Origin: a virus
Reading direction: 5' to 3' (one strand)
Length of the DNA stretch: 64,000 nucleotides
Virus record (IMG/VR): IMGVR_UViG_3300042465_006864
Span: 69,832-133,831 of that record
This document shows positions 5,085-36,270 of this stretch, one piece after another. Below the pieces are notes generated by a model, which worked only from the letters and a program-made list of their open reading frames with translations, made no database searches and was not told where the DNA came from. Made by a program: the position numbers and the translations under genes. The stretch's first letter is position 1, and every line of letters begins with the position of its first letter.

Positions 5085-5090
5085 GTGTAA
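5085..5090 (+). promoter_or_regulatory. GTGTAA putative late promoter (first of ~11 copies)
   Basis: GTGTAA 8-10 nt before ATG at 5100, 5962, 11767, 18159, 22894(-), 36356, 41754, 44415, 59235. Confidence 0.7.
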
Positions 5091-9863: not shown

Positions 9864-11723
9864 ATGGCGTGGGAAAAAGGACATCAAATCTTACATAAGA
9901 AATTTGAAAATGTAAACCAAGAAATCTTGGACACAGAAGGCTTCATTGAAGAAGAAAAGGCTAAAGTTCTTTTGTACAAGTTCTTGCGCGAGAATCCATC
10001 TTTTACTTCTGAGCTTATTTCAGGAATTTCATTGTTTCCATTCCAACACATGGCTATTAAGGCGATGATGGAGACAGATTACTTTTTGGGAATCTGGAGT
10101 CGCGGTCTTTCCAAATCATTCACCACTGGTATTTTCGCGGCTATGGATGCTATCTTAAATCAAGGTGTTTATATTGGCATTATATCAAAGTCTTTCCGTC
10201 AAAGTCGAATGATCTTTAACAAGATCGAAGAAATTGCCAAGAGTCCAAAAGCTGCGTATCTATCACAATGCATCACAAGAGTAAGTAAATCCAATGACCA
10301 ATGGGTTATGGAAATCGGGCGCAGTAAAATCATCGCTCTTCCTCTTGGAGATGGTGAGAAACTAAGGGGTTTCCGTTTCCAACGAATGATTATTGACGAG
10401 CTTCTTTTGATGCCCGAAAAAATCATTAACGAAGTTATTCTTCCGTTCTTGGCGGTTGTGGAAAATCCTACAGAGCGTCAAAAGATCTACGATCTTGAAA
10501 CAAAAATGATTGAGGCGGGGAAAATGACAGAAGAAGATCGTCACAGATGGTCTCATAACAAGATTATTGGACTATCTTCCGCTTCATACAAATTCGAATA
10601 CTTGTATAAGCTTTATCAGCAATACGAAAACCTTATTCTCAATCCTTCTAATAAAGATAATGCTCATCGAGTGATTATGCATTTGAGCTACGACTGCGCC
10701 CCGAAACAACTTTACGATCAAAACCTTTTGGATCAGTCTAAAGCCACCATGAGCGAAGCTCAGTTTGAAAGAGAGTTTGGCTCGATCTTCACAGACGATA
10801 GCTCTGGTTACTTTAAGGTTAGCAAAATGGCAGCTTGTACAGTTCCTGATGGCGAAGGACAGTCGGTAGAGGTCGTTGGTGATAAAAATAGCGAATACAT
10901 ACTATCATTTGACCCATCTTGGTCAGAGAGCGAAGGTTCTGATGACTTTGCTATGCATGTAATTAAACTCAATGCTGATAAACGATTCGGGACAATAGTT
11001 CACTCGTATGCTTTGGCTGGTGCAAACTTGAAAAAGCACATTGTATACTTTCACTATCTTTATACGCATTTCAATATACGAATGATTGTGGGTGACTATA
11101 ACGGCGGCGTTCAGTTTATTAATTCGTGCAATGAAAGTGAAATCTTTAAAAAGGCGGGGATTCAAATCCAATGCATTGATTCAGATTTTGATGATCCACA
11201 AAACTACAATGCCGATTTGCGCAGTGCTAGAAATCAATACAATGTAGAATCAAAGAAAATATGCATACTTAGAAAGCCTAGCTCATCATGGATTCGTTCG
11301 GCAAATGAGATGCTTCAAGCTGCTTTTGATCATAAGAAGATTTGGTTTGCTGGTACAGCTTTAGATGACGATTATTCGCGGCAAAAGTCAGCAGTGATTC
11401 CTATTGATGAGATTGCATTCTCACGATTCAACGATGAAGGCGACTCATATGCAAAACAAATAGATTTAATTGAGCATTTGAAAGATACAATTGATGCTAC
11501 TAAAGTTCAATGCGCATTGATTCAAGTATCTACGACAGCGAACGGTTCTCAATCATTTGATTTGCCATACAACCTCAAGAAGCAGCGAAACGCTGATAAA
11601 GCAAGAAAAGACTCTTACTCTGCTCTAGTGCTTGGTAACTGGCTTATGAACATTTATTTCGATATGATGGCGACTCCAGAGGCAGCTGCACAGACTACAT
11701 TTGTTCCAATGTTTGTTGATTAA
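9864..11723 (+). CDS. terL: Terminase large subunit
   Basis: LFPFQ, WSRGLSKS Walker A, LRGFRFQRMIIDE Walker B, LSSAS, FEREF, SFDP nuclease, KDSYSAL. Confidence 0.9.
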   Translation: MAWEKGHQILHKKFENVNQEILDTEGFIEEEKAKVLLYKFLRENPSFTSELISGISLFPFQHMAIKAMMETDYFLGIWSRGLSKSFTTGIFAAMDAILNQGVYIGIISKSFRQSRMIFNKIEEIAKSPKAAYLSQCITRVSKSNDQWVMEIGRSKIIALPLGDGEKLRGFRFQRMIIDELLLMPEKIINEVILPFLAVVENPTERQKIYDLETKMIEAGKMTEEDRHRWSHNKIIGLSSASYKFEYLYKLYQQYENLILNPSNKDNAHRVIMHLSYDCAPKQLYDQNLLDQSKATMSEAQFEREFGSIFTDDSSGYFKVSKMAACTVPDGEGQSVEVVGDKNSEYILSFDPSWSESEGSDDFAMHVIKLNADKRFGTIVHSYALAGANLKKHIVYFHYLYTHFNIRMIVGDYNGGVQFINSCNESEIFKKAGIQIQCIDSDFDDPQNYNADLRSARNQYNVESKKICILRKPSSSWIRSANEMLQAAFDHKKIWFAGTALDDDYSRQKSAVIPIDEIAFSRFNDEGDSYAKQIDLIEHLKDTIDATKVQCALIQVSTTANGSQSFDLPYNLKKQRNADKARKDSYSALVLGNWLMNIYFDMMATPEAAAQTTFVPMFVD

Positions 11724-18158: not shown

Positions 18159-18638
18159 ATGAGTACATTAAGTGGTTTAGCAACCAAAATATTTCAGACG
18201 GAGTTTGACAGTGATACTGGCGTTGTGCCACGTTCTTACATTGAAGCATGGCTTGGCGCTAATTTGGGGCTATTAAATACGCGCATCAATACATCTTATA
18301 GCGGAGTTAACGCTCCACTAGATCAAGAGTCTCAGGCTATCTATAAAGAGATGTATATGGCAAACTATTACCGCAAACAATCGCGTAATGCGTTGAAAGG
18401 ATTAGTCGGCAACACAGATGGCTCAGATATTCTTTCGCTAAGAGATGGCAACAGCTCTGTTACATTCACCAATAAGAACGAAGTATCAAAAGTATACAAG
18501 TCTTTGTCGGATGATTGCGAAACAAAAATTGACAAGCTCGCTCATCAGTATAACATGTATCAGTCAGAGCCTTTACAATTGGGCGGATTGGAAACTGATG
18601 GAGTATTAACCATTGCTGATTACAATACGTTTCTGTAA
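18159..18638 (+). CDS. Putative head-tail adaptor
   Basis: Position, size, LSLRDGNSSVTF motif, GTGTAA promoter. Confidence 0.55.
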   Translation: MSTLSGLATKIFQTEFDSDTGVVPRSYIEAWLGANLGLLNTRINTSYSGVNAPLDQESQAIYKEMYMANYYRKQSRNALKGLVGNTDGSDILSLRDGNSSVTFTNKNEVSKVYKSLSDDCETKIDKLAHQYNMYQSEPLQLGGLETDGVLTIADYNTFL

Positions 18639-18659
18639 AGCGGAAAAGTATAGAAAGAG

Positions 18660-18689
18660 AAAAGGCGCTGTTTTCACAGCGCCTTTTTT
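18660..18689. terminator. Bidirectional intrinsic terminator
   Basis: AAAAGGCGCTG-TTTTCA-CAGCGCCTTTTT between convergent genes. Confidence 0.85.
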
Positions 18690-18695
18690 AATTGA

Positions 18696-19664
18696 TTAAA
18701 CTACACCTGTGTCGAAAAGAATATGCACTTTTCTCAGCGGCAGAGCTAGGTCGCTAAATTGTTGCGTGTTGTTGATTCGAATAGAAGCTGTTCCGCTATT
18801 ACCATCATTGCTGGATAGAACAGTGTAGCTATCCATTATTTCATTTGGAATTATTTGCTGTAAAGTGTTGCCAGCGGTATAACTAAAATTTGCAAATGGA
18901 TCGGGTGTCATTTGTCCAGCTCCTGATGTTAGTGTTAATTGACCATTGAGCCATTTTACATTATATAGCTGTGTAGCACCAGCAGTTTTTGATGGAATTG
19001 TAACAGTTTGATAACTGCCACCTGTAAATGCTACTCCAGAAATACTTAATGTTCCATAACTAGACGCTCCAGCCCTATTTACTTGCGTTAAATACCAACT
19101 AGCGTTTCTAGTTTGATTAAATTGAATTGGAACGGTAATATTAGAAGAGTCGCCGCTAAAAACATAAGTAGCGCCTGGAGTTAAATAAATGGGACTGACT
19201 TCTCCTGGATTAAAAGTTGTAGAATCTATTAAAGCTGATTCTGGCTGTTCAAACTGTATATCTAATATAGAGGAATTAGCGTTACCAGATCCAGTACTAA
19301 GAATATAATAAGTTCCTTCGAAAGTATTCCATCCAATTGCCCAAAAACCTCCAGAAGTATATGAGCATTGTGCAGCACCGTTGTTGGGAAGATTGTTTCC
19401 GCTCCAATTGTTTCCACTTCCACTTATTGTTATGAAATCATCTACAGTATCATAGTCTAAAAAAACTTGATCGAATGGAGACGTAACTGCTTCTGGAGGA
19501 TTGATCATCAAGCCATTTGGCATTCCAGTAAATGTAATTATTCCATCACTTATTAACAAATCACTAATTCCGCCGTAAATGGGAACATATTCGTATGGTT
19601 GGATTGGAGCAACTGGGAAGTCTCCAGTTTGTGTAAATTCTGCGTAGTTTATATATCTTGGCAT
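18696..19664 (-). CDS. Beta-rich virion accessory/decoration protein
   Basis: S/T/G/N-rich, few charged residues; downstream of tail tube gene. Confidence 0.55.
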   Translation of the reverse strand: MPRYINYAEFTQTGDFPVAPIQPYEYVPIYGGISDLLISDGIITFTGMPNGLMINPPEAVTSPFDQVFLDYDTVDDFITISGSGNNWSGNNLPNNGAAQCSYTSGGFWAIGWNTFEGTYYILSTGSGNANSSILDIQFEQPESALIDSTTFNPGEVSPIYLTPGATYVFSGDSSNITVPIQFNQTRNASWYLTQVNRAGASSYGTLSISGVAFTGGSYQTVTIPSKTAGATQLYNVKWLNGQLTLTSGAGQMTPDPFANFSYTAGNTLQQIIPNEIMDSYTVLSSNDGNSGTASIRINNTQQFSDLALPLRKVHILFDTGVV

Positions 19665-19705
19665 ATTTTTTGTTTTTTTTTGTTTGGTTTTTAGCCCTTC
19701 TGAAT

Positions 19706-19744
19706 AAAAAGGAGGTTCTGTCTCCAGAACCCCCTCTTTTTTTT
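19706..19744 (-). terminator. Intrinsic terminator after tail tube gene
   Basis: Minus strand GAGGGGGTTCTG-GAGA-CAGAACCTCC-TTTTT. Confidence 0.75.
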
Positions 19745-19817
19745 AATTTTTATGCGAATGCGCCGACAATATCAAATGAACTAATATAAGTTGGAGCAGG
19801 AGGTTCAGAAGGGCTAC

Positions 19818-20927
19818 TTAAAAAGGGGCTGTTGTAAAGCTCCCGCTCATCTGAATACCGTTGTCTGTGTCGTTAGCACCACCGATTTGAGTTGTGAATG
19901 TAAAGTCGGAGGTTTTATTCGAACCAATCGAGCTAGAAACACTAGCAGAATCAAGCTGCGCACGTTTGATGACGTATTGAACAGCGAGTGTATTGCTTCC
20001 TGGCTTCTTGACAGAAATTACTACGTCTTGTTTAGGATTTGCATTGACCAAATCAACAAGATTTCCGCCAGCAGTTTCGTTTTGCACACCATTCAAGGTG
20101 AGTGTTGCAGTTACAGGGAAGTCAACTGTTCTAGCGAACGCGAATTTAGAACCAAGACGTTCAATTGGAGTTCTTCCAAGAGGAAGAGATAAACTTGCGC
20201 TTTGAATGTGCGCACCATCAGTGCCGCCAAGTTTGGAAATCAAACCACTGCCGCTCCAGATGCCGAAGTCAATAGTGACATCACCAGGACGAAGAGCAGT
20301 AACCACATTAGCTCCAGTAAAGCTATCGGGTTCTTTCAAGCGGATAACGGAATTAAGTGCAGTTCCAGATTCTTGATTGATAGCAACAGAAGTTCCCGAA
20401 TTAGTTCCACTGAAAGTAAAGGCGTTCATGTTAGCGCCTTCAAAGCTAACAGTAGCAGTAGGAATGCTGCCAACTGCCAACTCAATCGAGTAATCAGTAA
20501 GATAAGCGTTACCAACACCAATGCAACCTTTACCGCTCAAGCTGGATGCGCCAGAGAAGTTGTTAAGGTCAGTACCTTCGTTACTGGTTACGATATAAAG
20601 GTTTCTTCCGCTTCCATCTTGAACGTGACCAGACGGGAACTGTGAGAATGTTTGAGCGCCAGTAGCAACATAGAAACCGAGAGCAGCTTCATTTTGACCA
20701 TCAGTGATATAGTAGCTCATGTCCATCGACACAGTAGGAGATTCCAGAACGATAGAGTCGATACGAGCCAACTCACCATATTGGTTAACATCCTGACGAG
20801 CGATGTTGAAATTGTAGTTCGCGGATTGTACGCGAGAAAGCTGGGCGTGATCACCGCTGCCAGTAGAGGTAGCTTCTTTGCTGATATATACGCCTTCCGA
20901 TTGATAAATGATTCGATTTCTTGCCAT
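19818..20927 (-). CDS. Major tail tube protein
   Basis: RVQSANYNF, LPLGRTPIERLG; highly expressed codon bias; follows neck genes. Confidence 0.7.
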   Translation of the reverse strand: MARNRIIYQSEGVYISKEATSTGSGDHAQLSRVQSANYNFNIARQDVNQYGELARIDSIVLESPTVSMDMSYYITDGQNEAALGFYVATGAQTFSQFPSGHVQDGSGRNLYIVTSNEGTDLNNFSGASSLSGKGCIGVGNAYLTDYSIELAVGSIPTATVSFEGANMNAFTFSGTNSGTSVAINQESGTALNSVIRLKEPDSFTGANVVTALRPGDVTIDFGIWSGSGLISKLGGTDGAHIQSASLSLPLGRTPIERLGSKFAFARTVDFPVTATLTLNGVQNETAGGNLVDLVNANPKQDVVISVKKPGSNTLAVQYVIKRAQLDSASVSSSIGSNKTSDFTFTTQIGGANDTDNGIQMSGSFTTAPF

Positions 20928-20981
20928 AAGTGTTTATCTTTACTTTGTTTACATCAACAATAAAAAAAAGAGAAAAAAAAA

Positions 20982-21830
20982 TTACAAACGATGAACCCTT
21001 TGCTGGTGAATCTCAAAATCAATAAATCCAATAAACAAGTCATTCGATAAAGACTTTCTAGCTTTGTCGCTTAATTTGGATGTTACGACATCTTCAATGA
21101 AGAAAAGTGGTTCGCTGTTGTATTGGTTTTTTAATGAATCATAAGAATAAGTGCCGTTTTTAACATCTCCATATTCAGTGGTTGGATTGCCAGAGAATGG
21201 TATTGTCGGGAAGACCTCGTTGAAACTATCCGCAAAAATAGAAAGTGCGCCATCCAGTTGATAAGAGTTTTCTGCCATTACTACTGCTTTCATTTGTATT
21301 TTAGTAGTGTCTTCGCCGCCAAAAGAAAATGGTGCATTGTTGATTGATTGACTCGACAAGAAGATAGCTGGCACGACATTATCGTATGGCTCAATATAAG
21401 ATGCAGCCGCAGAAAAAACACGAGAGTTAGGTGTGTATTTTTTGTCTACGATCAAATCTTCTTCTCCATCATTAGTAAAGTAGATGTTGAAATCCTTTAC
21501 CGCGAAAGAACCAGAAACAGATGCTGTAGAAGCTGCGCCACTAATTAATGCTCGACCGTTATTAAAATCTAAAAGAAGTGAAGAACTTCGCGGATGAAAA
21601 GTTCCGCCAACATAAACGCCAGATGGAACAGTTGCGCCAGCGATAGATGAATCATTCACCCATTGTTTATATGGACTGCCGAAAGCCTTGAAGCGATCAT
21701 CGAGGCGATCATCGGCATAGTAATAGAATGAGCCGCTTTTGTTAGAATAGGCTTGACCTTTTTTCAGCAGGTAGTTGTCAAACCACAGCATGAAAGAGTT
21801 TGTTGCTTTGTGTTGGAATTGTTCGATCAT
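20982..21830 (-). CDS. Putative tail terminator/completion protein
   Basis: Precedes tail tube; VPAIFL...PFSFGG motif. Confidence 0.5.
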   Translation of the reverse strand: MIEQFQHKATNSFMLWFDNYLLKKGQAYSNKSGSFYYYADDRLDDRFKAFGSPYKQWVNDSSIAGATVPSGVYVGGTFHPRSSSLLLDFNNGRALISGAASTASVSGSFAVKDFNIYFTNDGEEDLIVDKKYTPNSRVFSAAASYIEPYDNVVPAIFLSSQSINNAPFSFGGEDTTKIQMKAVVMAENSYQLDGALSIFADSFNEVFPTIPFSGNPTTEYGDVKNGTYSYDSLKNQYNSEPLFFIEDVVTSKLSDKARKSLSNDLFIGFIDFEIHQQRVHRL

Positions 21831-23228: not shown

Positions 23229-23990
23229 ATGGAAAAAGGTTTTAAAGAATTGTACAGTTTCTCTGTTGATAGAGAAGTGGAAAAGGAAGTTAGCTCGACT
23301 AAAAAAGACAAAAAAACAGGCGAAGAAATTACCGTGACTAAAAAAGTCAAGGAAAAAGAGCCTCTTGCAGTCAAAATTAAAAAGCCATCTCGCCGCGAAT
23401 TAGAAGATGCTGAACTTGAGTTTAGCGTTGAAATGAGCAAATGCATCAAAAAAGGTATTCTTACTAAAGCGATGTTGGCAAAAAAATATAGCGATACTGG
23501 CGGTCTAATGAGTGAAGATGACGCTCAAGAGTTGGTAGATAACTATAAAAAGATTTTTGAATTGCAGTCCGATTATTCGAGACTAGAAATCATTCAAAAC
23601 AAAACAGAGAAACAAACGAAAAGAGTCGATGAAATTATCGAAGAGCTTCAAGCAGTTCGCCGCAAGATCGTAGAAACAGAGTCGAATTATCAAGCGCTGT
23701 TCGATCATACTGCTGATGTAAAAGCTCAGAACAGACTTATTCTTTGGTATGTTATCATGCTTACCTATATTCAAGGAGTTGATGATGAAAATCCAACACC
23801 TTATTTTGGATCGGGAGATTTTGACGACAAACTTGCGGAATATTACAAGAAAGAAGAATCCGACGATTCTCTCTATTTCTTGATTACCAAAAAAGCTGCA
23901 ACAATTTTGGCGTTCTGGTTCTTCAATCAAGCTTCTGATAAAGATTCATTCGACGACCTAATGAAGCGAGTCGAAAGTAATGAACTCTAA
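23229..23990 (+). CDS. Putative tail assembly chaperone
   Basis: Upstream of TMP; helical and acidic. Confidence 0.5.
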   Translation: MEKGFKELYSFSVDREVEKEVSSTKKDKKTGEEITVTKKVKEKEPLAVKIKKPSRRELEDAELEFSVEMSKCIKKGILTKAMLAKKYSDTGGLMSEDDAQELVDNYKKIFELQSDYSRLEIIQNKTEKQTKRVDEIIEELQAVRRKIVETESNYQALFDHTADVKAQNRLILWYVIMLTYIQGVDDENPTPYFGSGDFDDKLAEYYKKEESDDSLYFLITKKAATILAFWFFNQASDKDSFDDLMKRVESNEL

Positions 23991-23992
23991 TT

Positions 23993-24961
23993 GTGACTGA
24001 AGAGGAATACATTGGAATCGTTGGAGAAATATTTGATGGCTATACAGACATAACTTTTCAAGGAAAGACTGTATACATCAAGCATTTCTCTATTCGAGAC
24101 CAACGATATATCCACAGATTTTACAACAAATACAAATCAATTGCAGAATCCAAGGGCATCCCCTCAGAAGAGGAGATGCTCAATTCTTTGCGCGAAGATG
24201 GATTATGGAGCGATAACGATGATCGCAAAATTGTAGAACTTGAACAAGAGATGGAAGGTTTAAGAGGCGCGAAAAGAAACTCATTCCTACCATCGCAGAA
24301 AAAACATATTCAAGAAACTCTTGAGGCTAAGCAGAAAGAGCTTTATTTCTTGTTTAATAAAAAAGCAGAACTTGTAGGAAAGACATCTGAACGCTATGGT
24401 TCTCAGCGATCCAATGAGGAGTTTATTCGTTATTTGATTTATGCTGATCCGCAATGTTCCCGACATTTTTTTACAGACGAGCAGTTTTCCAATCTATCAG
24501 AAGAAGAGCTGGAGTTTTTTGTAAAAGAAAACGATCACATTAGTCATAGGCTCAATGAGTCAAACATACAACATGTAGTATTACGCGATTTCTTCAATAT
24601 GTATATGTCGCAAACAGAAGATGTTTCTGCATTTTACGGCAAAGCAATTATTGAACTTTCTGTTTACCAATTGAAACTAGCAATTTATGCGCGTATTTTC
24701 TTCAACATGTTCCAATATAACGAAGACATTCCTGAAAGAATGAAAAAAGACCCAGAAGCAATTTTCGACTTCGTTGAAAGAAAGAAGGGCAATAATAAAG
24801 CAAATGTCAATACTGAAAAAGGAGCTTCAGCAGTCTTCGGTGCTACAAAAGAAGACTTAGAAGCTATTGATCCAAATGCGAGAGCAATTAGTTTATCCGA
24901 TGAAATTGCAAAAAGCGGTGGCGTAATGAATATGGATCAATTGATAGAATTAATGGGCTAG
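23993..24961 (+). CDS. Putative tail assembly chaperone 2
   Basis: Immediately upstream of TMP. Confidence 0.5.
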   Translation: MTEEEYIGIVGEIFDGYTDITFQGKTVYIKHFSIRDQRYIHRFYNKYKSIAESKGIPSEEEMLNSLREDGLWSDNDDRKIVELEQEMEGLRGAKRNSFLPSQKKHIQETLEAKQKELYFLFNKKAELVGKTSERYGSQRSNEEFIRYLIYADPQCSRHFFTDEQFSNLSEEELEFFVKENDHISHRLNESNIQHVVLRDFFNMYMSQTEDVSAFYGKAIIELSVYQLKLAIYARIFFNMFQYNEDIPERMKKDPEAIFDFVERKKGNNKANVNTEKGASAVFGATKEDLEAIDPNARAISLSDEIAKSGGVMNMDQLIELMG

Positions 24962-33380: not shown

Positions 33381-34169
33381 ATGTTTGATTTATTAAACAA
33401 CTACGAGAATAAAGTTTTCATCTCTGGGCAAGAACTGCTCGGAGTTGAAAACGTCAACATTTCATATTCTCAATCTACGGCTGTCTCAAGATTTTTGGGA
33501 CTATCTACAGCGCAAACATTAATTGCTGGCGAGACTCAAAAACAAGTGACATTCTCGCGGTATTTGATTTATAGCGATCCAGTCTTGTCACTGACAGGCT
33601 CTTCGCCAACAAGTGGCAGCATCAACTACAATGGTCAAGCTTATGGCTTTAATAGCGGATTCCTGACCGAGTATAGCGTCAATTGCGCTGTAGGAACTGT
33701 GCCGTCAACTAATGCTGCTTTATCTGTTTATGGAGAGATGAGAAGCGGAATCAACCATTCGGGTTCAGTAGCAGCTCCAACAATATACATACCAAACCAA
33801 GGATCAATATCTTTATCATGCGATAACTCAACTACTAATCGTGTAGTTGGTTTCGATTACTCATTAAAAATTAATAGAGAGCCACTTTACAAAATAGGTT
33901 CAATTCTTCCCGCAGAAGTAATCACTGATCGAGTTATTGAGTTTAATGCGTCTGTGCAAATTGATGTAGATGACGCATTCTTGCAAAACGCCAGTGGATT
34001 TTTATCAGGAAGACAGAACAAAACAGTAACTTTTACTGTAAAATCAAAAGACAACACGCAAACAATTCAGCAGCTCACCATACCAAATGCATCATTAATT
34101 GGCGAGACTCTAACATCATCTGCTGATGGCGGCGTAAAATTAACACTTAACTATATTGGTCATTCATGA
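33381..34169 (+). CDS. Tail-tube-like baseplate/tip protein
   Basis: GFLTEYSVNCAVGTVP and INREPLYKIG shared with tail tube. Confidence 0.6.
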   Translation: MFDLLNNYENKVFISGQELLGVENVNISYSQSTAVSRFLGLSTAQTLIAGETQKQVTFSRYLIYSDPVLSLTGSSPTSGSINYNGQAYGFNSGFLTEYSVNCAVGTVPSTNAALSVYGEMRSGINHSGSVAAPTIYIPNQGSISLSCDNSTTNRVVGFDYSLKINREPLYKIGSILPAEVITDRVIEFNASVQIDVDDAFLQNASGFLSGRQNKTVTFTVKSKDNTQTIQQLTIPNASLIGETLTSSADGGVKLTLNYIGHS

Positions 34170-35113
34170 GCAGCTTTTACGATAGAACAACAGGCAACAT
34201 TAGCGGCGTTAGTCCACTAGCTTCATTAAGCTCAGAGTTTCCAGCATACGGATCGAAGGTGGCAATCACTTCGCGAAATAGTTTATATGAAACACAAAAT
34301 GGTTTCTATAACCTGATGCCGATGTCAGTCAATAACTTGAACGCTAAGTTTGATTTGAGATACGATTTACCCGAAAACAAGGCTCAACAGTTGGTGAGAT
34401 TTTTAGAATTAAAAAGTGGTCAAGAGTTTATTGAATTTGATGATCCTTCTGATTTCTATAAAAAGGTAAGTGGCGTTTGCGACAACTATGCTATTAATCA
34501 CATAAATAAGCAACATTATGAGGTTGCATTTTCGCTAGAAGTATTTCAGGCTTCTTCTATTCTTAACTGGTCTGGAATGTCTTATATAAATACCAGTTAT
34601 AAAACTTGGTCTGCCTCTCAATCCTATAAAAAATACGACATACTTTATTCTGGAGTCAATAGCAATAAATTAAACAATTTTTATTACTGCACCGAAGACC
34701 ATATTGCATCCAGCACTTCTTTAGATGGTCCAACAGGTTCTACAGCAAAATGGAGTCAGTCATTCTTTTTCGAGCCAGATGTTGGTGTTCAAAACGATGT
34801 TAAAATGCGCGTTGATACTGTAGATTTCAAAAACTCTTTTATCCAAAAGATCAATTCTTCGCGCAATATTTCTTTAGTCAATTGGCAGTATAAGTTCGAA
34901 AATATTGATGATCAAAAAGCCAAAGCTATCTTCCACTTTTTGGAAAATAAATTCGGCTATAGAAGATTCTATCATACACCTTCTTCTGTTTACAATAGAT
35001 TGAAGGTATACTACTGTCCATCGTGGCAACACACTTGGAACTACAACAATTCACACACACTGGAAGTTGAAATAGTGGAAGACCCACTTGGGATAGTTCC
35101 TAACGATCAATGA
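34166..35113 (+). CDS. Minor/distal tail protein with duplicated domain
   Basis: KAQQLVRFLELKSG and KAKAIFHFLENKFG internal duplication. Confidence 0.6.
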   Translation: MSSFYDRTTGNISGVSPLASLSSEFPAYGSKVAITSRNSLYETQNGFYNLMPMSVNNLNAKFDLRYDLPENKAQQLVRFLELKSGQEFIEFDDPSDFYKKVSGVCDNYAINHINKQHYEVAFSLEVFQASSILNWSGMSYINTSYKTWSASQSYKKYDILYSGVNSNKLNNFYYCTEDHIASSTSLDGPTGSTAKWSQSFFFEPDVGVQNDVKMRVDTVDFKNSFIQKINSSRNISLVNWQYKFENIDDQKAKAIFHFLENKFGYRRFYHTPSSVYNRLKVYYCPSWQHTWNYNNSHTLEVEIVEDPLGIVPNDQ

Positions 35114-36270
35114 GCAAATTTATATTCAAAAGCAATTCAGCAATACTAGCTACATCGCCATCTCCTGCTTGGACTACTACCGAGCAGAGCGGTTATTTTG
35201 TGCCGCTAGTTCAAGGATCAGAGATTTCTGTTTCTGTGGACAGGCAAACATCTAAACAGGTAGGCTCACAACAATATGCAATTGATGATATAGTTCGATC
35301 TCCAGATGTTAATTTTAATGTTAGTTATCTGTTTTCCCCCTATTTCGTTAACGAATATTTATTTGGTATTTATAAAAAAGACAAGGCAACATCTCCAACA
35401 GATCTCAACCAAGATCAAAATTTTTATCTACTTATTAATGATCAAAATGGTAGCGATATATTGCCGAGTTTTACTGGCGTTTCCCCAAGAACTAATTTTA
35501 GTGGAATGACATGCGCTTCAATTGGAAATTGTTTTTTAAATAATTATTCTGTTAGTTTTAGCGTTGGCTCATTACCAACAGTATCATGTTCTTTCGTTGG
35601 ATCGAATGTTCAATTTGTAAACTTGACGGGAAATAATATGGGAATACCAGCGATTAATCTAGCCTCTGGTAATCAAGTTAATTCTGGTTTTGTTAATTTT
35701 TCAAATTTCAAAACTTCTCTTTCGGGTTATTCTCCACAAGTTTCTTCAGATTCGCCAAATGTATATAGATTGCCAGTAACAAAACCAAGCGATGTGCAGC
35801 CAACGCTAAGCAATTTGCAATGCGGTGGCGCAACTTTAATTTCGGGCGCTTTGATACAATCTTTTAATATTGATATTCCTTTCGAAAGGACTAGTCTTTA
35901 TGGATTAGGGAGTAACTATATCTATGGTCGTAAAGCAAATTCTCCTGCTAGAGGATCAGCTTCTATCAGTGCTATTGTTGAGAATTTTAATAGCGGCAAT
36001 TTAGCTTCACTGAATCAATCAGAACAAAAATACGATTTTGAAATAGAAATGTTAAATTCGCAAAATGAAAAACAGAGCTATTTTTTCATTCAAAATGCAA
36101 AAGTTAATTCTATTTCTTATTCATTAAATGTCAATGGATTGATGGAGTTTTCTGCTAGCTACTCTTTTGAGGTAAATGATAATGGCGGATTGGTTATTTC
36201 TCCTTACGTTGCGATAGATAACAATGAATCAATTTGGCAAAACATTGACATAGAATGGAGCCTTTTTTAA
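35110..36270 (+). CDS. Tail-tube-like protein
   Basis: IGNCFLNNYSVSFSVGSLPT and IPFERTSLYGLGS match 19818..20927. Confidence 0.65.
   Translation: MSKFIFKSNSAILATSPSPAWTTTEQSGYFVPLVQGSEISVSVDRQTSKQVGSQQYAIDDIVRSPDVNFNVSYLFSPYFVNEYLFGIYKKDKATSPTDLNQDQNFYLLINDQNGSDILPSFTGVSPRTNFSGMTCASIGNCFLNNYSVSFSVGSLPTVSCSFVGSNVQFVNLTGNNMGIPAINLASGNQVNSGFVNFSNFKTSLSGYSPQVSSDSPNVYRLPVTKPSDVQPTLSNLQCGGATLISGALIQSFNIDIPFERTSLYGLGSNYIYGRKANSPARGSASISAIVENFNSGNLASLNQSEQKYDFEIEMLNSQNEKQSYFFIQNAKVNSISYSLNVNGLMEFSASYSFEVNDNGGLVISPYVAIDNNESIWQNIDIEWSLF

Follow-up and report, generated by a model that had tools for sequence, protein, structure and literature searches.

Frameshift-extended subunits are known from the tails and capsids of several phages. 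The tail tubes of SPP1 (gp17.1/gp17.1*) and of the Listeria phages A118, A500, and PSA contain subunits in two forms that arise by frameshifting at the 3' end of the tube gene, and frameshift-extended subunits are described also for gene 10 of T3 and T7 (PMC8718954, PMC5009743). In SPP1 and the Listeria phages, a minority of the subunits are extended, and these decorate the outer face of the tube (PMC8718954, PMC5009743). The Listeria tail frameshifts are +1 events, and frameshifting in T7 gene 10 involves a terminator sequence located more than 200 nucleotides (nt) 3' of the shift site, a dependence that a 2016 review calls unexplained (PMC5009743). Here, the end of the tail tube gene of an uncultivated lake-water siphophage-like virus was analyzed. 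The gene lies on the minus strand of a 64,000-nt stretch, referred to as the window (positions 69,832 to 133,831 of IMG/VR record IMGVR_UViG_3300042465_006864, which has 133,831 bp and direct terminal repeats). The gene end probably carries a programmed -1 frameshift cassette that is promoted by a long RNA helix, which is the best explanation for the locus as a whole. The original prediction, made from the window alone, had placed a canonical slippery heptamer at the stop codon of a tail tube gene, a 23-amino-acid (aa) extension in the -1 frame, a 13-mer with a distal complement, an antiterminator GAACCUCCU, a stimulatory stem formed only on read-through RNA, and a tie to the next protein gene downstream.

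By analogy, the closest mechanistic precedent is T7 gene 10A/10B, where a -1 shift near the end of a major virion protein gene likewise yields a minor, C-terminally extended form. The T7 site is of the G_GUU_UUC type, with imperfect re-pairing in the P site, and a relative of the virus studied here (L037) has G_GUU_UUU. The two systems differ in that the gene is a tail tube gene here and a capsid gene in T7, that the distal partner is a covarying helix arm lying directly behind a hairpin rather than within it, and that the extension has 20 to 27 aa. The gene 10B extension of T7 has 53 aa. The SPP1 and Listeria extensions are described as whole FN3 or Ig-like domains; the extension here is a short peptide without a domain fold, and, unlike the +1 Listeria cases, it would be reached by a -1 shift and is always linked to a separate gene. 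Long-distance frameshift stimulators are established in barley yellow dwarf virus (BYDV; luteoviruses, dianthoviruses) and in insertion sequences of the IS3411 type, where loop-loop or bulge-loop contacts are described as added to a local stem-loop. In contrast, the distal element here would be the whole 3' strand of the helix, and the trans-frame open reading frame (ORF) and a terminator-like hairpin lie between the two arms. The locus thus differs from the known cases in the far strand that lies past a hairpin, in the helix that encloses the whole trans-frame ORF, in the short peptide, and in the linked, diversifying gene. No stimulatory helix with its far strand just beyond a terminator-like hairpin was found in the titles and abstracts of the literature searched.

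The 369-aa product of the gene was not assigned to any Pfam or PHROG family, and its only profile match in the Protein Data Bank (PDB) was unrelated (E 0.37). An AlphaFold2 (AF2) model generated from a 19-row alignment (predicted local distance difference test [pLDDT], 74; predicted template modeling score, 0.77) was compared with known structures. The comparison by VIA revealed matches to the tube proteins of P74-26 (8ed0_A; Z 19.8, 306 residues aligned) and T5 (9iny_A; Z 19.1) and to the crystal structure of T5 pb6 (Z 16.4). These matches span model residues 4 to 366, with about 280 to 306 residues aligned, and Foldseek matched the model to duplicated tube proteins at E 1e-11 to 1e-9. Single-domain tube and Hcp proteins align to either half of the model (residues 7 to 204 or 197 to 365). 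The chain therefore contains two tandem Hcp/gpV-like tube domains, as indicated by the full-length matches, and the fold identifies the protein as a tail tube protein, as had been proposed. A tail tube function is thereby assigned to a family that Pfam and PHROGs fail to recognize. Like pb6 and the P74-26 protein, it has two fused tube domains in one chain; unlike pb6, it carries no decoration fused in frame, and no sequence similarity to either protein is detectable, so that the modeled kinship is at the level of the fold only. Model residues 4 to 365 align to pb6 residues 3 to 356, which end just before the external Ig-like domain of pb6. In pb6, residues 1 to 374 form the duplicated tube domain, and the Big_2 Ig-like domain that decorates the tube follows at the same C-terminal point and protrudes outward (PMC8718954). 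Homology to this layout suggests that a C-terminal extension of the 369-aa protein would be displayed outside the tube.

Relatives of the locus were collected from viral contigs and metagenomes. A scan of viral contigs with the tube protein yielded 24 loci, in 23 of which the gene end is present (L020 runs off its contig). A scan of the same contigs with an alignment of the 322-aa protein encoded downstream added L031 (L028 and L032 are cut off upstream), and a metagenome scan with that alignment added 11 loci (L033 to L043). All 11 contain the shift site, the extension, the inner hairpin, and the enclosing helix described below, which are together called the device; within the device, L038 and L001 have identical sequences. 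A scan of viral contigs for the pattern of the two helix arms returned 82 stretches, and 80 of them were fetched. Five of these belong to this phage group, four on contigs already in the set and one new (L062), and 75 are unrelated. The device set comprises the 17 loci that have the 322-aa gene together with its upstream DNA and contains 16 distinct sequences. A blastn search (distant mode) with positions 18600 to 21000 gave no match among phage records.

The minus-strand gene end reads GCC CCT TTT TAA and includes the predicted canonical heptamer C_CCU_UUU. As a feature of the window the heptamer stands, but as a conserved unit it does not: X_XXY_YYZ is present in 10 of the 16 distinct sequences and U_UUU, a Phe UUU codon preceded by U, in all 16. 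The codon before UUU is CCU in 14 sequences, preceded by C in 10 (C_CCU_UUU), A in 2 (A_CCU_UUU), and G in 2 (G_CCU_UUU); it is GUU in the other two (G_GUU_UUU in L037, A_GUU_UUU in L062). A minimal -1 site is described as Z_ZZN and the classical one as X_XXY_YYZ, with a spacer of 5 to 9 nt, and G_GU in T7 gene 10 is given as a tolerated imperfect P-site triplet (PMC5009743). The 0-frame stop follows UUU directly in 12/16 sequences and after one codon in 4/16. Among 20 device-less relatives, the homologous Phe codon is TTC in 14 and TTT in 5, preceded by T in one of the latter, and it is absent from 1. The predominance of TTC in these relatives indicates that the U-preceded UUU is a choice specific to device-bearing genomes. 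A 5' stimulator resembling a Shine-Dalgarno (SD) motif was also considered; the window has GGGAG 12 nt upstream of the site, the motif is not kept in the relatives, and SD-like motifs occur at only 2/36 gene starts, and this candidate was rejected.

Analysis of the -1 frame confirmed the 23-codon extension in the window and revealed that it is a conserved coding sequence. The frame is open and in register in 16/16 sequences despite insertions and deletions, and the extension has 20 aa in four sequences, 21 in one, 22 in two, 23 in seven, 26 in one, and 27 in one. The ratio of nonsynonymous to synonymous differences (pN/pS), summed over pairs of 15 sequences that are not phylogenetically independent, was 0.37 in the -1 frame and 1.19 and 1.27 in the other two frames over the same columns; in the C-terminal motif block it was 0.34 versus 1.12 and 1.21. 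All extensions follow the same layout, a Pro/Ser linker and then a hydrophobic motif, (Y/F)xxxFxI(V/L/Y)GA(F/L), in which the invariant Gly is encoded by GGC, GGT, GGA, or GGG and the next Ala by GCA, GCG, or GCT. With 20 to 27 aa, the peptide is too short for an Ig-like or FN3 domain. No ATG, GTG, or TTG precedes the motif within the extension, nor was a leader found there, and in 5 of the 13 relatives examined a -1 frame stop lies 2 to 5 codons upstream of the U run. Because of the upstream stops and the missing start codon, the -1 frame can be entered only within about three codons that end in UUU. A homopolymer sequencing error was ruled out, since runs of four or five T and differing stop contexts are found in independent assemblies.

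The 13-mer that begins 4 nt after the heptamer and its distal complement were located as predicted (Table 1). The two arms are perfectly complementary and separated by 99 nt. The minimum free energy (MFE) fold of positions 19680 to 19835 includes this helix as well as the hairpin enclosed by it (-52.8 kcal/mol; z -6.4), and 0/200 shuffled sequences reached an energy as low. The arms form the sole perfect inverted repeat of at least 13 nt at a spacing of 3 to 150 nt in the window. In the relatives, the helix is part of the MFE fold in 15/15 sequences and in L062. In 16/16 sequences, the first invariant G-C pair follows the UUU codon at a distance of 6 nt; some of them have one or two additional A-U pairs, which reduce the spacer to 4 to 5 nt, so that the 3' structure begins 4 to 6 nt after UUU. 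When NNU occupies the P site and UUU the A site, the helix base stands at about +11 to +13, which is the classical position.

The relatives also provide the covariation check that had been proposed, and pairing is kept with compensatory changes. In a plain MAFFT alignment, 86.7% of the helix cells pair, and 5 of the 14 pairs change on both sides. The double changes convert U-A to C-G at two positions, in 4 and 3 sequences, and A-U to G-C in L040, where a Ser-to-Gly replacement in the peptide is matched by a T-to-C change in the 3' arm; two further double-changed pairs are helix ends, and a single sequence has G.U at one pair. The covariation score was 0.156, compared to 0.089 in shuffles (0/500 reached the observed value), and control arms slid along the alignment paired in 32 to 58% of cells. 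RNAalifold, applied to the MAFFT alignment, independently predicted both helices. A covariance model built from 15 sequences scored L062, on which it had not been trained, at 81.8 bits, and everything else in 31 sources at no more than 29.6 bits. In the 16-row alignment fitted to this model, which leans towards structure, 91.3% of the cells pair and 14/26 pairs change on both sides. The codons of the 5' arm, which encode SPSE, show a pS of 0.155 versus 0.617 in the motif block, which indicates a constraint at the nucleotide level on top of the coding constraint. The two rows returned by a search of Rfam were at chance level (E 0.49 and 0.88) and fell well short of the gathering scores. The helix is taken to exceed chance because of its conservation and covariation in the relatives, not because of window statistics.

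Between the arms, a G+C-rich hairpin is followed by a U-rich tract (tail in the window, UUUUUAUU). This inner hairpin has a folding energy of -20.3 to -26.8 kcal/mol in 15/15 sequences, and in the model-fitted alignment of 16 sequences it is 96.9% paired with compensatory changes at 9/12 pairs. Most sequences have 6 to 7 U within 8 nt of the tract. The hairpin and the adjoining tract have the form of an intrinsic terminator, and they stand at the site where device-less relatives have their terminator. A simple terminator scanner run on the minus strand did not list the inner hairpin. By form, it is a candidate intrinsic terminator.

The features described above can be combined as follows. Some of the ribosomes that hold NNU in the P site and UUU in the A site would slip back by one base on U_UUU. 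These ribosomes would miss the UAA that lies 0 to 1 codon ahead and add a tail of 20 to 27 aa. The slip would be promoted by the helix of 11 to 14 pairs, the first invariant G-C pair of which would stand at the mRNA entrance of the ribosome, and the 3' arm of which would be reached about 100 nt downstream, past the whole extension ORF and directly behind the terminator-form hairpin. Judging from the homologous T5 pb6, the tail would be exposed on the outer surface of the tube. The comparative data make it highly probable that the -1 recoding is real and that a second, longer tube protein is produced. That the long helix acts as the stimulator of the shift is a likely part of this explanation.

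The original prediction had also tied the extension to the gene that follows, which encodes a 322-aa protein, and this tie proved to be strict: the device is present in 17/17 loci that have the 322-aa gene and in 0/20 loci without it. Among the 23 tube gene loci with a gene end, the whole device was found in L001, L002, and L007, and the same three have a homologue of the 322-aa protein by tblastn. Device-less loci have, behind the tube gene, either an immediate terminator and a convergent gene or small genes that are unrelated; in the more distant relatives L011 to L019, L022, and L024, the position of the device and the 322-aa gene is taken by a different small gene, which adjoins the tube gene and encodes a Lys/Pro/Glu-rich product. 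A tree of the tube protein was calculated from 27 distinct rows; rows shorter than 300 aa (L004, L020, L033, L041) were left out, duplicates (L005, L009, L010, L023, L038) were dropped, and L042 and L062 were not included. The device label changes 3 times on this tree, compared to 9.2 times in shuffles, and fits one gain and two losses (L003/L005 and L006/L023). Each loss removed the extension, the hairpin, the 3' arm, and the 322-aa gene together. The terminator-like hairpin GGCGCTGTGAAAACAGCGCC, which in the window follows the 322-aa gene, directly follows the tube gene in the device-less loci L003, L004, L005, L006, and L023. The shared hairpin indicates that the extension, the inner hairpin, the 3' arm, and the 322-aa gene were inserted or deleted as one cassette.

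The 322-aa gene starts 24 to 50 nt behind the 3' arm of the helix, in an A-rich spacer. Neither an SD-like motif nor the hexamer GTGTAA, which stands before several other genes of the window, was found before it, which makes its expression by read-through plausible. Its product belongs to an orphan family of 35 clusters (all E <=2.4e-47), which are unnamed or labeled "hypothetical" and have no Pfam domain; a Pfam search with 15 members revealed nothing below E 0.06. The N- and C-terminal parts are conserved and the middle is variable. Identity to the copy in the window ranges from 25 to 82%, and the flanking genes are 85 to 98% identical in close relatives. The AF2 model (pLDDT 77) is all-beta. 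A Foldseek search with it revealed nothing in the PDB at E 1e-3 or better, eight rows in BFVD at this threshold all had template modeling scores of no more than 0.22, and an Atlas search with the protein gave nothing usable. In a wide VIA search, residues 143 to 249 matched a Klebsiella phage baseplate protein at Z 7.6, a value within the range that VIA calls common, CBA120 TSP4 at Z 7.1, and a capsid spike at Z 5.8. The 322-aa protein could be a virion decoration protein or an adhesin, since its variability and its linkage to a displayed peptide fit such a role. The extension peptide would then be the attachment point for the 322-aa product. That the two dock in this way is a tentative proposal, with the odds slightly to its disadvantage.

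The peptide might instead have nothing to do with the 322-aa protein and serve as a C-terminal arm for contacts between tube rings or for binding something else, with the linkage resulting from a shared transcript or cassette. A precedent is gp53 of 80alpha, in which a C-terminal arm is described as folding onto the next ring (PMC8718954). The near constancy of the extension motif next to a 322-aa protein that varies from 25 to 82% identity is in line with this explanation; the conserved N- and C-terminal parts of the latter could nevertheless provide a constant docking surface. The perfect match of presence and absence and the two joint losses also argue against independence. An independent role of the peptide is unlikely, although it survives better than the other alternatives.

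Next in order is the possibility that the shift is real but relies on the slippery run and the nearby stop codon alone, and that the helix and the hairpin form a compound 3'-end structure for termination, protection from 3' exonucleases, or RNA processing. The terminator form of the hairpin, the terminator at the same place in device-less relatives, the clamping of the hairpin base by the helix, and the stop codon 0 to 1 codon after the shift site in all 16 sequences are compatible with this explanation. Against it, the invariant 6-nt distance from UUU to the G-C pair corresponds to the geometry of a stimulator, for which a spacer of 5 to 9 nt is described (PMC5009743), and the 5' arm is held at the nucleotide level within coding sequence. 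Moreover, the relatives that have no extension have a terminator but no enclosing helix. A purely 3'-end function of the helix is therefore improbable.

It is very improbable that the arms are terminal inverted repeats of a small mobile element or recombination cassette, kept alike at the level of DNA and covarying for that reason. The behavior of the extension, the hairpin, the 3' arm, and the 322-aa gene as one unit of insertion and deletion would suit such an element, but the arms flank only the extension and the hairpin and leave the 322-aa gene outside. In addition, the 12-mer core occurs nowhere in the 133.8-kb genome except at the two arm sites (up to 1 mismatch allowed), and one lineage has retained a pair in the form of G.U, a change that would be neutral in RNA alone. 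The 5' arm is part of a coding sequence, and its distance from the shift site is constant. In the pattern scan of viral contigs, the arm pair was confined to this gene context (5 of the 80 fetched loci, all from this phage group).

A run of 4 to 5 T is too short for productive transcriptional slippage. Equally remote is the explanation that no recoding takes place and that the -1 ORF is a decaying remnant, an independently started peptide, or the result of RNA polymerase slippage. A T run is present and the longer product is so far unobserved, but the signature of purifying selection is confined to the -1 frame, all 16 sequences preserve this frame across insertions and deletions, the extension has neither a start codon nor a leader, and the T run is within this limit.

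Alternative pairings of the inner hairpin were analyzed with respect to a possible coupling of termination and frameshifting. A segment of the extension (GAACCTCCT) repeats part of the 3' arm of the hairpin and is a candidate competitor for its 5' arm. In RNAs truncated before the hairpin 3' arm, the 5' arm of the hairpin pairs with a region that overlaps the 5' arm of the helix (15/15). The competitor duplexes have energies of -10.6 to -20.8 kcal/mol and are weaker than the hairpin, at -20.6 to -29.3 kcal/mol in this comparison, in 15/15 sequences, and when partners were swapped between lineages, the cognate combination was no better than the swapped one in 2/3 groups. Of the predicted GAACCUCCU antiterminator, the alternative pairing is thus possible throughout, and its cognate specificity was not borne out by the swaps. 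The pairing could simply reflect C-rich Pro/Ser codons that meet a G-rich arm. As in attenuators, three mutually exclusive or nested pairings can be drawn: the 5' arm and GAACCUCCU can pair with the hairpin 5' arm before the hairpin 3' arm is made, and this region would be covered by ribosomes terminating or shifting at the end of the gene. Unlike in attenuators, the competitor is always weaker than the hairpin, lineage-specific matching is missing, and the locus shows no sign of a leader peptide mechanism. A further layer of antitermination, sensitive to ribosomes, might be provided by the C-rich beginning of the extension.

An RNA that ends at the U tract would lack the 3' arm of the helix, because this arm lies behind the tract. 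In such a terminated RNA of the main group and of L031, 0 to 6 of the 14 nt of the helix 5' arm are paired, with a pairing probability of 0.20 to 0.47. Transcripts that stop at the hairpin would accordingly shift little, and read-through transcripts would carry the full stimulator together with the next gene. That the terminator gates the frameshift in this manner is doubtful. A stimulator split by an intrinsic terminator, in which the transcript isoform sets the recoding rate and the number of tagged subunits is matched to the supply of the 322-aa protein, is likewise rather unlikely. In this arrangement, terminated RNAs would yield plain subunits only, and read-through RNAs would yield tagged subunits as well as the tag-binding 322-aa protein. 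If this were true, the number of docking sites would be matched to the supply of the decoration protein, and it could be modeled in concrete terms how frameshifting in T7 gene 10 depends on the distal terminator.

Several observations weigh against the helix-promoted frameshift cassette or against parts of it. In 6/16 sequences, the canonical heptamer is replaced by A/G_CCU_UUU or G/A_GUU_UUU; P-site re-pairing is imperfect there, and the efficiency may be low. When the window is considered alone, at least one inverted repeat of the kind formed by the arms occurs somewhere in 12% of block shuffles. The covariation comes from only about 4 to 5 lineages, 7 of the 14 outer pairs are invariant, and 5/16 sequences have a mismatch at the same pair. 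In L041 to L043, the U tract is short, consisting only of UUUAAUAC. In the terminated RNAs of these three loci and of L062, 9 to 13 of the 14 nt of the 5' arm pair with GGGGCU (probability 0.55 to 0.77). With a local partner for the 5' arm in 4/16 sequences, the absence of a stimulator from terminated RNA is not general. The predicted restriction of the stem to read-through RNA would hold insofar as terminated RNA lacks the 3' arm and is weakened by these four sequences. Transcript data were sought in the 24 sequencing runs listed, 6 of them RNA, with word shares of 0.05 to 0.17. None of the contigs from 4 metatranscriptome runs bridges positions 19664 to 19830, the contigs being short; contigs from the RNA runs lie on the tube gene (4 runs) and on the 322-aa gene (one run), and such libraries can hold DNA. 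Finally, the 322-aa protein has no informative relatives or fold and is a candidate virion protein at most.

The partner of the 5' arm in L041 to L043 and L062 is created by the conserved Gly-Ala codons of the extension, which read GGG GCU in these sequences. The stem formed by GGGGCU is possibly a second stimulatory stem that is independent of the terminator.

With its comparative data, the compact cassette of about 135 nt is suited for testing whether termination can gate translational recoding. The locus also suggests a modular way of tube decoration, in which a short displayed peptide and a separate, fast-diversifying protein would replace a fused Ig-like domain.

The features of the locus are summarized in Table 1, together with the genes of the structural module in which the device is embedded.

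Table 1. Positions in the window of the device, of the adjoining genes, and of genes of the surrounding structural module
Feature	Position	Strand	Remark
Major tail tube protein gene, 369 aa	19818..20927	minus	assigned from ORF and fold; 0-frame stop TAA 19820-19818
Putative shift site C_CCT_TTT	19827-19821	minus	invariant part T_TTT 19824-19821 (Phe UUU preceded by U)
-1 frame extension, 23 codons, LSSPSEPPAPTYISSFDIVGAFA	19821-19753	minus	stop TAA 19752-19750
Helix 5' arm TAGCCCTTCTGAA	19816-19804	minus	encodes SPSE; starts 4 nt after heptamer
Extension copy GAACCTCCT	19806-19798	minus	repeats hairpin 3' arm 19718-19710; candidate competitor for hairpin 5' arm
Inner G+C-rich hairpin	19739-19703	minus	5' arm 19739-19725, loop 19724-19721, 3' arm 19720-19706
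U tract TTTTTATT	19710-19703	minus	after inner hairpin
Helix 3' arm TTCAGAAGGGCTA	19704-19692	minus	starts inside end of the U tract of the inner hairpin
322-aa all-beta protein gene	18696..19664	minus	orphan, fast-evolving family; AF2 pLDDT 77
Terminator-like hairpin GGCGCTGTGAAAACAGCGCC	18687-18660	minus	after 322-aa gene
Terminase large subunit gene	9864-11723		structural module around device
Tape measure protein, 2791 aa	25004-33379		structural module around device
Minor tail protein gene	34166-35113		structural module around device

At positions 35110 to 36270 of the plus strand, three genes after the tape measure gene, lies a gene for a 386-aa protein that is paralogous to the tail tube protein (31% identity; E 9e-23). 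Its position resembles that of the tube-like tail-tip protein of T5. Before the tape measure gene (positions 23229 to 24961, plus strand), there are ORFs of 253 and 322 aa, the second in the -1 frame of the first. A canonical chaperone frameshift of the G/GT type was considered for this pair and not found in a simple check, as the frame of the second ORF opens only at 23984 and the short overlap has no X_XXY_YYZ.

SD-like motifs were found at only 2 of the 36 gene starts in the window, and the leaders are A/T-rich. This pattern suggests that the host initiates translation without depending on SD pairing; as to its identity, a Bacteroidota-like bacterium is a guess. The first base of the hexamer GTGTAA stands 12 to 16 nt before the start codons of 9 genes, among them the gene at the head of the minus-strand tail tube operon (sites at 5085, 5947, 11752, 18145, 22908 [minus strand], 36341, 41738, 44400, and 59220). 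The total in the window, 27 compared to 21.9 expected by chance, is not above chance, so that the signal is positional. In this position, GTGTAA may be part of a phage promoter or initiation signal.

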